A DNA stretch of 64,000 nt from Naegleria gruberi (taxonomy: Eukaryota): NCBI GenBank assembly GCA_000004985.1, contig GG738860.1; one strand, given 5' to 3'. Below the pieces are notes generated by a model. It saw only the letters and a program-made list of their open reading frames with translations, was not told the DNA's origin and did not search any database. The position numbers and the translations under genes were made by a program. Below are positions 50,010-57,458 of this stretch, in pieces (the first letter of the stretch is position 1; each line of letters opens with the position of its first letter).

Positions 50010-50651
50010 ATGCAAAAACAAATCACTACAACAGACGCCCAAATCCTTAATCTTTTATTTTCTTTGAAGAATGATATGGCCAATATTAAACAAGACAATA
50101 ACAAGTTGAAAGAAGATAACAAGAAATTGAAAGAAGATAACAAGAAACTCATCACAAGAGTTGAGGTTTTAGAAAAAGATAGCAAGAAGTTGAAAGAAGA
50201 TAACACGAAGTTGAAAGAGGTTAACAAGAAACTCATCACAAGAGTAGAGGAATTAGAAAAAGATCACAAAAAGTTGAAAGAAGAAAACAAGAAACTCTTC
50301 ACAAGAGTAGAGGAATTAGAAAAAAAGGACTTGTTGAAAGTAAGAGCAAATACTTTGAAGGAGTTGTTCAGATACTTGGCAACCAAAGTTGCATCTCTGG
50401 TTTCTCCAATAGTTGATGCCACAAAACCAAACTGGTTTAATGTAATGCAATCTTATTGTAGTTCCAACATTGTTATTGAACTCCCTATCAGCCTATCTGC
50501 ACTTCAAGAGTTATGGAGCACTTACAAGATCTTAAGGTTTCCTAGAAATTACATTTGTCAAAAGCAGCTAGATGATAATTTGGCCCTTGTTTCTGGTGAT
50601 GAAAAGAAAGCCGTTCAATGGTATTTGGATCAGACTCAAAACAATCACTAA
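50010..50651 (+). CDS. Hypothetical coiled-coil protein with repeated KKLKEDNKKL/ITRVEELEKD units.
   Basis: ATG at 50010. Five tandem repeats of an approximately 21-aa unit (DNKKLKEDNKKLITRVEVLEK...). Confidence 0.45.
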   Translation: MQKQITTTDAQILNLLFSLKNDMANIKQDNNKLKEDNKKLKEDNKKLITRVEVLEKDSKKLKEDNTKLKEVNKKLITRVEELEKDHKKLKEENKKLFTRVEELEKKDLLKVRANTLKELFRYLATKVASLVSPIVDATKPNWFNVMQSYCSSNIVIELPISLSALQELWSTYKILRFPRNYICQKQLDDNLALVSGDEKKAVQWYLDQTQNNH

Positions 50652-50676: not shown

Positions 50677-51892
50677 CTAATAATAATATTGCTCATATTT
50701 TCTTCTGGTGAGAGAATAGATTCCACATTCATCATATTCATCCTGTGTTATCCAAACACTATCAAATGAACTCAAACTTGTCAAAATTGATCCACCAATA
50801 AATGGACAATTATATCTGTACTCAGTGTCACAGGTCTTTATGCCAATATTGAATGAATCTTTAGTGAGAGCTTTCAATTCATCCTCTATTCTTTCTTTAA
50901 ATCCAAAGAATTGACTAGTTCCTCCTGAAATAATAATATTAGAAAAGAGATTTTCTCTTGCATCTTGATCACACGCCAAAATTGCTTTGTGAATTAACTT
51001 GTCAATTCCATCACATTCTCTTCCAATCTTGTTTGGTTGAAATAATATTTCTGGTGCTATAAATCGTTCCATATCCACAACGATTTGATTTCCATCAGGT
51101 AACGTATAATTCATTGAAAATTCATTCTTGTCAATTGTAAAATCTCTCGGTCTCAGAACTCCTTCCATTAATTCCTTGTAATTATCAGCCACAAAACAAC
51201 ATTGCTCCTTCATTACTCTCAAATGTTCCAAATCACTCGATGATTCAGAGTAAAATCCCTTCTCAGACATTAAAACTTTTTGTAATTGTTTTGTAACATC
51301 ATCTCCTCCTAAATGAACCCTCTGAACTGCATTATAAAACGTATAGCCATTATAAATAGGTGTCACTGTTGTCACTTGATGACCAACATCCACAGCAACT
51401 CCTGTATAACTTCCACAACTGGAAGCAATTTTTAATTCACACTCAATTCATCCAAAATTTCCTAACCTACCTATACAAAATCAATCCACCAGAATTCTTT
51501 ACATAAAACTTTGGCACATGAAATGTCTCGAACATGATTCTCATCATTTGTTCGGAATTAAATTTCGGAGAAAGTGCTTGCTCGATCATTAGCACTGGAT
51601 GTTCAGAGGGATTAATCCTCAATTCATCCATCATTAGATAGGACCATACCCTCTCTAGATAATCCCAATTCTGTCCCACTCCATTCCTAATACATGGAGC
51701 AAGATTTAGAAAACATTGATTTTCGTGAGAAATTTGATTTCCCATGTAAAATTCTCTCGACTCGGCTCCGAACATTTCTGGTTTGATTTTCTGTTTGCCG
51801 ACCATTGAAGAAATGACAATGGATGGCTTTTCATCACTGGAAAATCCTGATTTGATAAGAGAGCTGCCGTTATCAATAATAATTGCTGTCAT
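50677..51892 (-). CDS. Divergent actin-related protein (Arp), 2 exons: 51471..51892 and 50677..51418.
   Basis: ATG at 51892 (MTAIIIDNGSSLIKSGF is the actin phosphate-1 loop). Exon 1 ends GGLILY with donor GTAGGT. 52-nt intron 51419..51470. Exon 2 SCGSYTGVAVDVGHQVTTVTPIYNGY parallels actin [25 protein letters not shown]. C-terminus WITQDEYDE parallels actin WISKQEYDE. 1164 nt, 387 aa. Confidence 0.7.
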
Positions 51893-51997: not shown

Positions 51998-53344
51998 TTA
52001 GTTGAAAGAAAGTGGTAGAAGGTCAGTATTTTCATAAATTTCGAATTGGATTTGAATTCTGCCAAGTGCGCTTTCTCTAATGACGAGAAGGGATTGTTCA
52101 TCGAGTGTCATTAAGGTTTGATTGGTTGAATCTATGAATGATATGTTGGAAATAACACAATTAGTTGGGAGATTCCACTGTTCCTTAATTTTTTGTTTGA
52201 AAATTGACATTGACATGAGCTCTTCTTTGGTAAACCCAAATAATCTTTGTTGGTTGTGAAAGTTTAGTTGGATTGGAATGATTTGAGGTCGATTCATTGG
52301 TGGTTGAGGCGTATGAATGATTGGATTCGGATAGGCCAGTTGTTGGTTTGGAATCATTGGACGAATATTGTTATTCGGAAGTTGTTGAGCCAATCCATTA
52401 AAAAGAAATGGAAAGTGAATGTTTGGAAGTTGAACATTCACCCAAGTAAATCCAGTAAATCCATTTCCATTTGAATTCATTGAGAAATGATTAATAGACG
52501 CATTATTGAATTGTTGTAAATGTGGTTGACCAATTAGGGATTGATTTTGGGGATGTCGCACCACTTGACCATTATTAAGCGGTACATGATTCATCACTCT
52601 TTCATTTTGATTACCATTTCTTATAGGATTCATGTTTGCTTGCTGATTAGTTCTAATAACATTTTCATTCTGTGGTTGATTTCTTGGTGGAGTATTATTC
52701 TGTCGTATCTGTCGTGGTGGAGTTACATTCATCCTATTTCGTGGTGGACTATTAGTCTGTATCTGTCGTGGCTGTTGTGGTGCTTGTTGTTGTACATTTT
52801 GATTCCAACCTTCTTGTTGACCTATTGGTGGTTGTTGTTGACCATTCATTTGAGCCTCCTCATTTTCAGAGCCATTCTCTTGTCCATTTTCAATTCCAAA
52901 TCTTTCCTGTAACTCCCTCGCTTTTCTGTTAATTTTCAAATAGAAATTCTCCATCAAGTATGGAACATAATGTTGCCTGCAATGTTTCCAACTTTTTTCC
53001 TGAATATTTTCAATGAACTTCAACAGCAAATTATCAATGAATGGAATGAGCTTGTTCTCGGTAATTAAACGAGGAAGAGAAGGTTCTGAGAAGACTCTAC
53101 GATTCTCCTCAGCAATGAAACATTTTACAATGTGAATTTTCTGGTACAGAGTAATGCGATGGTCGCAGTGGGTATCGTTATAGTGACAGGATGGACATCG
53201 GCTCGAGGAGAGATGAGGTAGGTTGGCTGGTGTGATGTACTCCTCATCTATGCTGTTACTACTTTCCGTATCACTTTCATCATCAATAATAACAGGTTCG
53301 GCAAATGACATTTTTTTTGACGTTTGAAAACTCGAATTTCCCAT
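51998..53344 (-). CDS. Paralog A of an unrecognised family. N-terminal CxxC-x6-CxH zinc-knuckle-like motif with an ENxRI block, a Q/N/P-rich middle and a conserved C-terminal domain of about 80 aa.
   Basis: ATG at 53344; the ORF-track start 53368 is TTG. N-terminus SSSRCPSCHYNDTHCDHRITLYQK...FIAEENRRVFSEPSLP. C-terminus FTKEELMSMSIFKQKIKEQW...LGRIQIQFEIY. Confidence 0.5.
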   Translation of the reverse strand: MGNSSFQTSKKMSFAEPVIIDDESDTESSNSIDEEYITPANLPHLSSSRCPSCHYNDTHCDHRITLYQKIHIVKCFIAEENRRVFSEPSLPRLITENKLIPFIDNLLLKFIENIQEKSWKHCRQHYVPYLMENFYLKINRKARELQERFGIENGQENGSENEEAQMNGQQQPPIGQQEGWNQNVQQQAPQQPRQIQTNSPPRNRMNVTPPRQIRQNNTPPRNQPQNENVIRTNQQANMNPIRNGNQNERVMNHVPLNNGQVVRHPQNQSLIGQPHLQQFNNASINHFSMNSNGNGFTGFTWVNVQLPNIHFPFLFNGLAQQLPNNNIRPMIPNQQLAYPNPIIHTPQPPMNRPQIIPIQLNFHNQQRLFGFTKEELMSMSIFKQKIKEQWNLPTNCVISNISFIDSTNQTLMTLDEQSLLVIRESALGRIQIQFEIYENTDLLPLSFN

Positions 53345-53398
53345 CGTAATTCCAACTTGAAGAACCAAATCAAATACATTGATTTATATTGAGTAAAT

Positions 53399-54520
53399 TT
53401 ACATATAAATATGATGATTAGTAACAGGCAACTCATCCTTTTGAATTCCATCAACTTTGAAAATCAAACAAATGTCATCTTTGAACCATTCATCTCTGGC
53501 AATTGCTAATGCTTTCTTATTGGCCAAGCAGAAATCTCTAGTCTTTGGATTGAGGATTAGAATTTCAGAGATGGTAAAATTATTAGAAACTGGCAACTCT
53601 TGCTTCAAGGCAATTACAAAATCTCTAACACTATCCAAATCAGATTTTGTCAATTTTGCAATGTAATTAACTTGTTTCAACTCAATTTGAACAAGTTTTT
53701 GATCTTCATTTGCTGATCTGACAGATCTTGTGGAGAAGGCGTCAGGAAGCTCAGATTCTGCAATCATTGAACCAATTTGATTACCATGATTTGGGACATT
53801 GACATTTGGCATAACTGGAGCATTTTGGGTTGGGTTGGAATCGTGAGGTTGGAGAATTACAACTTCATCTTCATCTTCCTCTTCAATGATGATTGGAGTT
53901 TCAAAAGTATTTCTTTGAACAGTTCCAAAAAAGGAAGCACATTCGAAATATTGTTGTTGATGAACAATAGAAGCATTGGAAGAATTCATTCGATGTGGAG
54001 GTTTAGTAATCTTGGATGGACTAACCTTCTCCTCCTTCGCTTGTTGTTGATGATTTGACTGATGACTTTGATGGTTGGCCATCACAGAACCATTGGTTGA
54101 AAAGCTTCCAAACAAATCGACAAGTGTTGGAGCATAGAATGTTGGTTTTACCTCCGCAGCACCATGAATAACACGATGAAAATCATCTGGCAATTCTGCT
54201 GTGAATCCATTCTTTGCAAAACGATGAAGTTTCTCATAGAATTCACCCAGTTTCATCTTGTATTCTGCTCTTTTTCTTGAATAATTACGATCTTCGAGAT
54301 GATGAGCAAACTCTTGAACACTAGCAAGAATGAAATCATCAAAAATTTCTCTCTTATTGGCTGGAACAGGAATGTCAGCAATATTTCGATTCTCCTCTGC
54401 ACAAAACATGCGAGGAAGACAACACTTTTGATGGAGAGAAATGCCATGAGTGCACACGATGCCATTGCGTTGACAGATTGGGCACCTGTTGGAATCTGTC
54501 TTTTTTACTCCACTGGACAT
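53399..54520 (-). CDS. Paralog B of the same family.
   Basis: ATG at 54520; the ORF-track start 54589 is TTG. N-terminus DSNRCPICQRNGIVCTHGISLHQK...FCAEENRNIADIPVP. C-terminus KLTKSDLDSVRDFVIALKQEL...ICLIFKVDGIQ. Confidence 0.5.
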   Translation of the reverse strand: MSSGVKKTDSNRCPICQRNGIVCTHGISLHQKCCLPRMFCAEENRNIADIPVPANKREIFDDFILASVQEFAHHLEDRNYSRKRAEYKMKLGEFYEKLHRFAKNGFTAELPDDFHRVIHGAAEVKPTFYAPTLVDLFGSFSTNGSVMANHQSHQSNHQQQAKEEKVSPSKITKPPHRMNSSNASIVHQQQYFECASFFGTVQRNTFETPIIIEEEDEDEVVILQPHDSNPTQNAPVMPNVNVPNHGNQIGSMIAESELPDAFSTRSVRSANEDQKLVQIELKQVNYIAKLTKSDLDSVRDFVIALKQELPVSNNFTISEILILNPKTRDFCLANKKALAIARDEWFKDDICLIFKVDGIQKDELPVTNHHIYM

Positions 54521-54725
54521 AAATATTTTTTTTAATTTAAATTTTTGACCAGATTTATTAAAAAACAAACTTTCTTGTTTTATGGACAACTACGAGTAGC
54601 GAAGCTATAAAGGTTCCTCTGGATAGAATTGGATTTTGTTTATTCTTGTAGGTTTGAATTGGGAATATTTCTAATAGTGTTCTTATTGTTAGAAATCTTT
54701 CGAATAGTATTTCGTTTTCGAAAGA

Positions 54726-55574
54726 TTATTCGGCTTCAACTTTAATTTCCATACATTTAACCTTTCCAAAGAAATCTTCTCTAAATGGCTTTAATGTTTC
54801 TGATCCATAAACTGAACATAACTTGTCGGTATATGCATTCTTAATTCTAATTCTTGTAAATTTTGCATTTTCGTCCAACAATAGATGACGTTTCATGGCA
54901 ATCATCAAATTTTGTAAACTGGCAAAGTCTGTTTCAGTCATCTTTACCAGATTTCTTCTTCCTTGATTTGTTAATGATATTTGGCATGATTGTTCAATTG
55001 GTTTTTTGACTGGTGACGCTTTTTTGATTAATGAATTAGTGACAGTTTTGTGTTGCTTTGAAATTCCATTGCTTGTTGGTCCAGTGACATCTGGTCTGAT
55101 GTTTGGATTTACTGGATTGAGAGGAATTCTTGAAGTATATGATGTGCCAGATGTTGAAGTTCTTCTTTGATCATTGACAGGTTGACCTCTTCCTTGATTT
55201 GTGTTAGCATCAGAAATAACATTCATTTTCTTGGCCTTTACCATTACTACATTATAAAACTCATCGATCAACCTTTTCTTGTAAAGATCTTTAGCTCCAG
55301 AATAATCTCTGTTTCCAACTCTTCTTGTAAAGTTTTCCAATTGTTGGATGATGAATTCATCGAATTCTGCTGAACGATCGGTAGGGATGGGATGAGAGTA
55401 GATTCTGGCATTCTCTGAAGCTATGAGTGGAGATGGTAGGTTGGTTCTTTCAGAGAGTGCTTTGGTGTGTGGACAAGTGACGTTCTTTTTGTGACAGACA
55501 GGACAACGGTTGGATTTGAGAGTCAATTTGGCAAAGTGTTCATCTTTGATAAGAGGAAGATTTGCTTGTTGCAT
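54726..55574 (-). CDS. Paralog C of the same family (shortest, 282 aa).
   Basis: ATG at 55574; the ORF-track start 55619 is TTG. N-terminus KSNRCPVCHKKNVTCPHTKALSER...LIASENARIYSHPIP. C-terminus KMTETDFASLQNLMIAMKRHL...VKCMEIKVEAE. Confidence 0.5.
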   Translation of the reverse strand: MQQANLPLIKDEHFAKLTLKSNRCPVCHKKNVTCPHTKALSERTNLPSPLIASENARIYSHPIPTDRSAEFDEFIIQQLENFTRRVGNRDYSGAKDLYKKRLIDEFYNVVMVKAKKMNVISDANTNQGRGQPVNDQRRTSTSGTSYTSRIPLNPVNPNIRPDVTGPTSNGISKQHKTVTNSLIKKASPVKKPIEQSCQISLTNQGRRNLVKMTETDFASLQNLMIAMKRHLLLDENAKFTRIRIKNAYTDKLCSVYGSETLKPFREDFFGKVKCMEIKVEAE

Positions 55575-56132
55575 TTTTTTATTGTTGAATTCTTTGTTAT
55601 CGAGTGCGAGAGCAAACAAGAATTGCTGTCATGGGAAATTTGACATGTTGACAGCGGCAAACTTTCTTGTTCTTTCAAATTTAGAGAATTGAACACAAAT
55701 GCATCACTAACCATGTCCACCAAGTATTTTTGTTTTCTAATAGTTTTGTATTGTTGTTTCAAATTGTTAAGAAGTGACAGTTGTAACGTAAATGTGTGAA
55801 ATAAAAACTTACCTTTTTCGACTTGAATTGTTGGAGCAATGTAACTCAAATCGTTGATTGCAGATACAGGTAATTAGAGAGTAAGATGTTTCTAATGGGG
55901 AATTATTTCAACCATTGCAGGTTCACGTACAAATGGTAACAAAAAGTTTGCAACCCTCGAGTGTTTTGGGAGGGTTAATTCGAAATCCAATTACAATCAA
56001 AAGATTTTTTCAAAGATGTCATTCTAACAACAACAAATTCCAGATTGAACCTCAACAAGAAATTCAAAATCAAGAAAAACATTAAAAACAAGCGAAAATT
56101 GGAGAATTTTTAAAACCAACAACCAAAAAAAA

Positions 56133-57458
56133 ATGTCGCAACCAAATGCTGAGCACAATTCTTGTGTGGAAGAAGCTTCTTCCGAGAGTGTTGATCATCA
56201 TCACGAGCACGGAAAGGAGGGATTGAAAGCTCCTACTCCTGCCGATTTAACAGTCTCCTCGGAATGGTTTGAATTTATTTTACAAAAGAAGGGTTTATTA
56301 AATCATAATGATGAAAATCATGTGTTGAATGTAGAGATGAAACCTTTGGCTGAGAATAGAGGACTTTGTGCAGTAATGACTCGATTGAGTGTTACTTATT
56401 CTGATCCTGATTGTAAATTACCAAAATCCTTTGTGTTGAAATCAATTCCAAATACTGAAGAAGCTAGAGCTCAATCAAGTACACGTGGACAATTCAGAGA
56501 AGGATTGTTTTATGAAAGTGACTTGTTGGAAAAGTTAGATGCTTCTGAAAATCATGTATTATATGCTCATGGATGTGAAAAAACTGGTGAATATATTATT
56601 TTGATGAATGATTTGAAAAATAGGTAGGTTACTGAGATATTCCACATTCGGACTGACAATATTAGTGATCATGTGGTTGGCGTGAATTTTGTGTTTGGAA
56701 ATCAAGTATGGGGAGTTCCTGAATTCAATGTCAAACTTCCAGAGCCAATTCCTGTTTTGGAACAAATGTACAAGGCATGTGCAAGATTGAATGCCAAGTT
56801 TTGGAAGGATCCATCATTATTGAACCATACCTTTTTGAAATCTTCTGCTTTCTACAGAGGAGAAAGACAAGTTGGATGGGAAACTGGTATGAATACTGCT
56901 AGAAATGCCTGGAAAGTTGCCAAGGAAAGAAATTCAAAGAGTGAATTATTCAAATTCTCTGATAAGTTGATTGAAATTATTGACAAGTCATTAGAGTTGG
57001 CAAGTTGGGAAAATATGCAAAAGGCAATTCTTGAAGAACCATTCACTTTATGTCATGGAGATTTCCATGCCAGTAACATGTTTGTGAATGTTGATACTTT
57101 GGAAGTATCCATGTTTGATTGGTCTGAAGTTGGAGTGTGGAATCCAGTTACTGACTTGGCTCAAACTCTCATCTCTGATGTTAAACCTGAAATTGTTGCA
57201 CAAAATTCAAAACATTTAGTCAAAGTTTATTATGATGAATTGGCCAATTGTGGAGCTGATTTGACTGGATTCTCATTTGAAGATTGTTGGAATGTTTTCT
57301 GTAAGAATGGGCCTGAGAGATGGATTTGGCTATTTGTTGTCTTGTCATCCATGTCTGTTATTCCTGATAAGGCCATCAAATTCTGGCATGATAATTTATT
57401 ATCATTTATTGAATCACATGGCGATTATCCAATTTACAACCTTAAGAGTATTGTTTAG
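56133..57458 (+). CDS. Ecdysteroid-kinase-like / CHK-type kinase-fold protein (EcKL, aminoglycoside-phosphotransferase-like fold), 2 exons.
   Basis: Exons 56133..56623 and 56666..57458. Donor GTAGGT. 42-nt intron. Total 1284 nt, 427 aa. Catalytic loop LCHGDFHASNMFVN matches the APH/ChoK Brenner motif HxDxxxxN. The downstream DWSEVGV has the position of the metal-binding D of the DFG-equivalent. Confidence 0.65.

Follow-up and report, generated by a model that had tools for sequence, protein, structure and literature searches.

Three adjacent genes on the minus strand of Naegleria gruberi contig GG738860.1 (assembly GCA_000004985.1) resemble one another and are deposited only as 'predicted' or 'uncharacterized' proteins; what kind of proteins do they encode? 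The question was raised by a first-pass annotation of a 64,000-nucleotide stretch of this contig (we call the whole stretch the window, and coordinates are counted from its first nucleotide), which described three tandem paralogs, here genes A, B and C. We find that they belong to a real, unannotated and apparently species-restricted family of five proteins, each consisting of an unrecognised and probably zinc-binding helical head (N-domain), a disordered linker, and a tail that is recognisable in a structure model as a beta-grasp (C-domain). We read them, with a probability of about 0.5, as modular adaptors or regulators that would bind a target through the zinc-stabilised head and associate with proteins through the PB1-like tail.

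Gene models and shared domains

The genes lie in three adjacent minus-strand open reading frames (ORFs; 51998-53368, 53399-54589 and 54726-55619 in the ORF listing). As seen in Table 1, they are exact matches to three consecutive deposited N. gruberi proteins, all on one 537-kb scaffold. The intron-free models proposed from the sequence agree with the deposited ones, which are all single-exon, and so do the lengths of 373 and 282 aa. The 448 aa given for gene A gives way to 437 aa, since the deposited model starts at the second ATG (53311) and the longer version at an in-frame ATG further upstream (53344); the 448-aa version is absent from the protein collection (exact-sequence look-up), and the A-rich stretch before 53311 resembles the sequence preceding the start codons of B and C. 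The possibility that the ORFs are exons of one gene was rejected, because every one of them encodes the whole set of N-domain, linker and C-domain and corresponds exactly to a deposited model with a single exon. Searching the literature by locus tags and accessions, we found no papers.

N-terminal similarity is significant in all pairs of the three proteins (BLASTP E-values from 6e-10 to 2e-17), and C-terminal similarity detected by BLAST is significant for the B-C pair alone (E-value 1e-6). A profile made only from the two paralogs outside the window (see below) gives its three best scores, among 237 ORF segments of the window, to C, B and A in that order, and tblastn finds no fourth copy in the window. 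The motifs that had been listed for the N-terminal part of the tandem paralogs are all visible in the A/B/C alignment (RCPxC-x6-CxH; A(E/S)EN.R(I/V); F..(F/I)I...F...Y...(E/N)FY), and by pairwise BLASTP and profile search the locally duplicated family is real. Its description as unrecognised also holds: there is no Pfam match (the best hits of the five members and their isolated C-domains are at chance level, PAS_13 and CDC24 calponin, each with E-value 0.03), and PDB sequence-profile searches with full-length, N-domain and C-domain profiles return nothing below E-value 0.1.

Family size and distribution

We searched all 1.84 billion (1.84e9) representative proteins with a HMMER profile of A, B and C (E-value cutoff: 0.001). 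The search returned five matches, every one from N. gruberi: genes B and C, P0006, P0007 and P0008. P0007 (NAEGRDRAFT_52014, 432 aa, E-value 1.5e-14) and P0008 (NAEGRDRAFT_49967, 374 aa, E-value 6.9e-12) are additional full-length paralogs with both domains, encoded on other scaffolds, so that the family has five members and not the three originally counted. Gene A itself is not listed among the matches and is represented there only by the A-like fragment P0006. This protein of 205 aa is encoded on a separate contig in the N. gruberi assembly (1,151 bp); it shares 81% identity with the middle part of gene A, has an unrelated tail, and could come from a divergent haplotype that was not placed or be an incomplete sixth copy.

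The five members are roughly equidistant from one another (24-34% identical N-domains, 15-24% identical C-domains), and therefore the tandem trio is not a recent triplication. No homolog outside N. gruberi was found among the 1.84e9 representatives, and at HMMER sensitivity the apparent species restriction holds. Other Naegleria species are expected in the library, and orthologs as similar as P0007 and P0008 would score alike; the family would thus be either limited to the N. gruberi lineage or very rapidly evolving. Word-indexed protein searches, run with alignments of 3 sequences, of 8 sequences and of the N-domain, added no relatives, but these negatives carry no weight, as the searches missed family members present in their collection (P0002, P0007 and P0008), and the N-domain query missed even its own proteins. 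Metagenome scans with B and with C gave no match. About 25% of the Naegleria pangenome is core genome, and species-specific genes are common in the genus (PMC9928731).

The N-domain and its putative zinc knuckle

An alpha-helical N-domain of about 105 residues is common to all five members. According to the five-paralog alignment, it opens with an invariant S-x-(R/K)-C-P-x-C, followed by 5, 6 or 11 residues and then C-x-H; the C, P, C, C and H columns are invariant despite this variation in the spacing between the pairs. The other invariant positions are a Leu four residues past the His, the Asn of the AEEN block, and an Ile, Phe, Tyr, Leu, Tyr and Ala that sit on two long helices. Four of the five N-domains are basic (net charge of +4 to +7, isoelectric point (pI) of 8.9-9.5). 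An AlphaFold2 model of gene C, computed with the family alignment, is all-alpha in this part (helices at residues 25-30, 35-44, 52-59, 65-86 and 95-123), with means of the predicted local distance difference test (pLDDT) of 62-88 for 10-residue blocks across residues 21-120.

A structural zinc site seems probable, mainly because the four ligands never change, although the loop between the pairs differs in length and identity elsewhere in the domain falls to about 28%; CPxC-x5-11-CxH most likely chelates one zinc ion. The first-pass annotation could not match this Cys/His spacing to a familiar zinc-finger family; all four residues are invariant in five paralogs, and there is no Pfam zinc-finger match. 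The N-domain has no Pfam match at E-value 1 or better and no PDB sequence match below E-value 0.1, and it is not among the 50-60 listed top matches of PDB fold searches with the whole gene C model, which all fall on the C-domain (as assigned by the descriptions and aligned lengths of the matches).

Named types of zinc finger, SWIM and UBZ among them, were considered and rejected. For the SWIM finger (CxCxnCxH), the first pair is CxxC in 5/5 members and there is no Pfam SWIM match at E-value 1 or better. For the UBZ1/CALCOCO type, the only zinc-finger entry surfacing in the PDB sequence searches is a fragment of CALCOCO2/NDP52 (5aaq; 'CPICKADDICDH'), with insignificant E-values of 6.6 (full-length profile) and 3.1 (N-domain profile) and a match covering little beyond the ligands. 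The first finger of CALCOCO2 has the CPxC-x5-CxH spacing of P0008, one residue shorter than that of A, B and C, but has no counterpart of the roughly 90-residue conserved helical domain that follows the knuckle in Naegleria. With such E-values we treat this likeness as a lead and not as evidence.

Linker

Between the two domains lies a disordered, low-complexity and fast-evolving linker of 72-199 residues (pLDDT below 50 in the gene C model), whose composition varies from Q/N/P-rich in A to S/T/P/K-rich in P0007. The variable Gln/Asn/Pro-rich middle noted earlier is thus present, and the repeats reported in gene A correspond to a degenerate tandem repeat (Table 1).

SIM-like motifs (resembling SUMO-interacting motifs: three to four V/I/L residues flanked by D/E runs) are found in disordered parts of 4/5 members and are absent from gene C. 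Their sites are 53250-53290 (minus strand; A residues 7-19), 53843-53893 (minus strand; B residues 210-226), residue 165 of P0007 and residues 166-180 of P0008, and their sequences are 'PVIIDDESDTESS', 'PIIIEEEDEDEVVIL', 'DDENDEITIV' and 'DDVVSVDLGAVIDVDDE'. A SUMO-like or ubiquitin-like (UBL) surface, possibly that of the family's own C-domain, could bind them. The linkers of gene C (about 54999-55034, minus strand, 'SLIKKASPVKKP') and P0008 ('AAIKKASAKKQQ') can be aligned only in one short basic motif, IKKAS.(K)K; it may serve in nuclear localisation or phosphorylation, or be due to chance.

The C-domain adopts a beta-grasp fold in the model

The C-domain, about 90 residues long, is likewise common to all five members, and its sole invariant column is a serine. 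AlphaFold2 confidence for gene C increases from pLDDT 37 (single sequence) to 69 overall with the family alignment, and reaches about 90 in the C-domain. When the model was compared with the PDB by Foldseek, the top matches were the PB1 domains of PKCzeta/p62, plant NBR1 and Par6 (target-normalised TM-score of 0.68-0.79), and PB1 ranks first with both structure methods. The model has the element order of a PB1-type fold (b b a b b a b, two helices, about 80 residues) and is similar to many independent UBL domains, as expected of the ubiquitin-like beta-grasp superfold. As modelled, the C-domain is a beta-grasp of this superfold, closest in shape to PB1 domains. The conserved C-terminal module described at first is indeed conserved, and its description as a small fold of unknown type is corrected to a confidently modelled beta-grasp best matching PB1. 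A fold search of a viral structure library gave nothing below E-value 0.1, and so no sign of a giant-virus origin.

Other beta-grasp proteins suggest other functions. The five proteins could be ubiquitin-system adaptors, with the beta-grasp docking as a UBL onto the proteasome, deubiquitinases or UBL receptors and the knuckle as a ubiquitin-binding-type zinc finger like the first finger of CALCOCO2/NDP52. The spacing that 5aaq shares with P0008, its status as the single zinc-finger entry found, and the SIM-like motifs in four members speak for this idea; the match itself is insignificant, no Pfam ubiquitin, UBZ or UBL model matches at E-value 1 or better, and PB1 is ranked first by both structure methods. 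Among beta-grasp folds a long second helix is a PB1-like feature, and the model has one (residues 258-268). We consider ubiquitin-system adaptors unlikely.

We think it quite improbable that the proteins are cytoskeleton-associated factors, in which the beta-grasp would act like the UBL domains of tubulin cofactors B/E or of doublecortin and tie the family to the tubulin and basal-body biology of Naegleria. The similarities in question are generic to the beta-grasp and lie below the best PB1 match, Pfam scans give no CAP-Gly, LRR or DCX signal, and gene adjacency means little for function in a eukaryote. The UBL domains of tubulin cofactors E/B, USP11/15 and Rsa4 also differ from the Naegleria C-domain in having other partner domains and no sequence similarity to it.

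Evidence for functional genes

An allele of gene C, 98% identical, is found on an independent environmental contig (L001). It differs by 5 synonymous and 6 non-synonymous changes (ratio of non-synonymous to synonymous rates, dN/dS, of 0.32) and one in-frame 3-bp (single-codon) indel that keeps the frame, and the upstream flank, conserved in 335/405 aligned columns, is much less so than the coding DNA. The comparison is consistent with purifying selection, although the numbers are small.

These data bear on whether the ORFs are functional at all. Families with low-complexity linkers and no homolog outside N. gruberi could consist of duplicated genes in decay or, in a genome as gene-dense as this one, of over-predictions. 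Against this, the three ORFs of 282-437 aa are intact at 24-34% identity, which indicates long divergence with no stop codons; 14 N-domain columns are invariant, all four metal ligands among them; the C-domain model is confident; and the independent allele of gene C preserves the frame, with dN/dS of 0.32. We consider non-functional ORFs very improbable. None of the ubiquitin-pathway, cytoskeletal and non-functional explanations is favoured by the data.

Proposed mode of action

In the adaptor or regulator reading, the zinc knuckle would pin two short N-terminal helices onto a long helical hairpin, giving a binding head that is compact and mostly basic; the linker, being flexible, would give reach and perhaps present short linear motifs; and the beta-grasp tail would mediate protein association, either homo- or heterotypic among the paralogs or with some other partner. 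The target of the zinc-stabilised head would possibly be nucleic acid or chromatin. We infer that the proteins bind zinc, that they oligomerise and what kind of target they have; nucleic acid or chromatin as the target is a reasonable guess from the layout shared with plant auxin response factors (ARFs) and Aux/IAA proteins, which have a DNA-binding domain, a Q-rich middle and a C-terminal PB1 domain. The likeness lies in the architecture alone (the same order of binding domain, Q-rich middle and C-terminal PB1 or PB1-like domain), and the Naegleria N-domain, unlike the plant proteins, has no homology to B3 or any other known DNA-binding domain. The only hints toward a nucleic-acid-binding or regulatory role are the basic N-domain (4/5) and this architecture.

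Several observations weigh against the proposed reading. The AlphaFold2 model of gene C is based on an alignment of just five distinct sequences, and the best Foldseek E-value of 2.3e-3 is marginal. PF00564, the Pfam model of PB1 (Par6, atypical PKC, NBR1, p62/SQSTM1, Cdc24), matches no full-length member or isolated C-domain at E-value 1 or better, and hhalign gives a probability of 1.3% when the family C-domain profile is compared with eight PB1 domains, each confirmed as PF00564. The acidic OPCA motif of type-A domains (YxDEDGD...D.D after beta3) is absent in all five members, in which this segment is neutral or basic (KNAYTDK, LNPKTRD, IDSTNQT, KYPENGK and KLPGLKR), and no basic residue corresponding to the type-B lysine is conserved in beta1. 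The N-domain of gene B is not basic (pI 6.9), and with no N-domain match in the listed fold matches the role of this domain is a guess. The C-domain thus shares the beta-grasp fold of PB1 domains in the model, and we do not yet assign it to the PB1 family. Since sequence similarity, the OPCA motif and the beta1 lysine are lacking, the PB1 interaction mode should not be assumed for it, and since neither motif is conserved, PB1-style head-to-tail pairing is unproven.

A stronger form of the adaptor or regulator reading holds that the N-domain is an undescribed zinc-stabilised helical nucleic-acid-binding fold and that the five proteins are Naegleria-specific transcription or RNA regulators assembling via a cryptic PB1-like tail; in this form we find it doubtful.

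Genomic surroundings

The coordinates of the genes and their domains are listed in Table 1.

Table 1. Features of the three window genes (positions in the window; residues in deposited proteins)
Feature	Position	Strand	Evidence or description
Gene A	51998..53311	-	NAEGRDRAFT_48002, XP_002678854; 437 aa + stop; exact match
Gene A C-domain, residues 341-437	52001..52291	-	Most divergent beta-grasp copy; BLAST not significant; 30.1 bits, E-value 2.5e-7 against profile of the other four C-domains
Gene A linker, 199 aa	52292..52888	-	Composition: Q 17%, N 20%, P 13%
Gene A degenerate tandem repeat, 27 bp x 3.1	52685-52771	-	Repeat search; TPPR(N/Q)xxQNN units
Gene A N-domain, residues 34-141	52889..53212	-	Knuckle and helical region; BLASTP E-value 9e-11 to B, 6e-10 to C
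Gene A putative zinc knuckle	53159..53197	-	C39-P-S-C42-x6-C49-D-H51; five-paralog alignment, codons read
Gene B	53399..54520	-	NAEGRDRAFT_65926, XP_002678855; 373 aa + stop; exact match
Gene B C-domain, residues 271-373	53402..53710	-	Beta-grasp; BLASTP E-value 1e-6 to C; leave-one-out profile E-value 2.9e-12
Gene B N-domain, residues 8-114	54179..54499	-	BLASTP E-value 2e-17 to 4e-17 to C
Gene B putative zinc knuckle	54446..54484	-	C13-P-I-C16-x6-C23-T-H25; five-paralog alignment
Gene C	54726..55574	-	NAEGRDRAFT_65927, XP_002678856; 282 aa + stop; exact match
Gene C C-domain, residues 193-282	54729..54998	-	Modelled beta-grasp, b1 b2 a1 b3 b4 a2 b5; pLDDT about 90
Gene C N-domain, residues 19-120	55215..55520	-	AlphaFold2 with family alignment
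Gene C putative zinc knuckle	55467..55505	-	C24-P-V-C27-x6-C34-P-H36; five-paralog alignment

The surroundings are gene-dense eukaryotic DNA of ordinary appearance (about 34% G+C), with neighbouring genes for an actin-family protein, a coiled-coil protein, an EcKL/APH-type kinase-like protein, an NIF phosphatase and an inositol-1-phosphate synthase. Directly downstream of gene A is the divergent actin-family gene (50677-51892, minus strand), with one short intron between the ORF pieces 51467-51892 and 50677-51393 (Pfam Actin E-values of 7e-32 and 4e-54). The coiled-coil ORF (50010-50651, plus strand, 213 aa) contains repeated 'KKLKEDNKKL...ITRVEELEK' units; no protein in the collection equals its product exactly, and the deposited model probably differs. 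The EcKL/APH-type kinase-like gene (56133-57458, plus strand) comprises two pieces (56133-56627 and 56673-57458) that are probably joined over a short intron, the second matching Pfam EcKL with E-value 9e-13. Opposite the low-complexity linkers there are antisense ORFs on the plus strand at 52541-52912 (123 aa, gene A) and 53777-54058 (93 aa, gene B), which look like shadow ORFs of biased coding sequence and not like genes.

Significance

Gene regulation and signalling have hardly been studied in heteroloboseans, and a function has been assigned to only a minority of species-restricted Naegleria genes. If the proteins were regulators with a new N-domain fold, the layout of plant auxin response factors ('binding domain, Q-rich region, PB1') would have evolved a second time, independently. 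Specialists will not be surprised by such a family, as species-specific genes are numerous in Naegleria; it is real but fairly ordinary, and its members are a familiar kind of modular protein. A fold (the modelled PB1-like beta-grasp) and a clear domain plan can now be assigned to one species-restricted Naegleria family, and a compact, probably zinc-binding N-domain of about 105 residues without recognisable relative has been isolated. The C-domain would add one more case of beta-grasp interaction domains drifting past sequence recognition.

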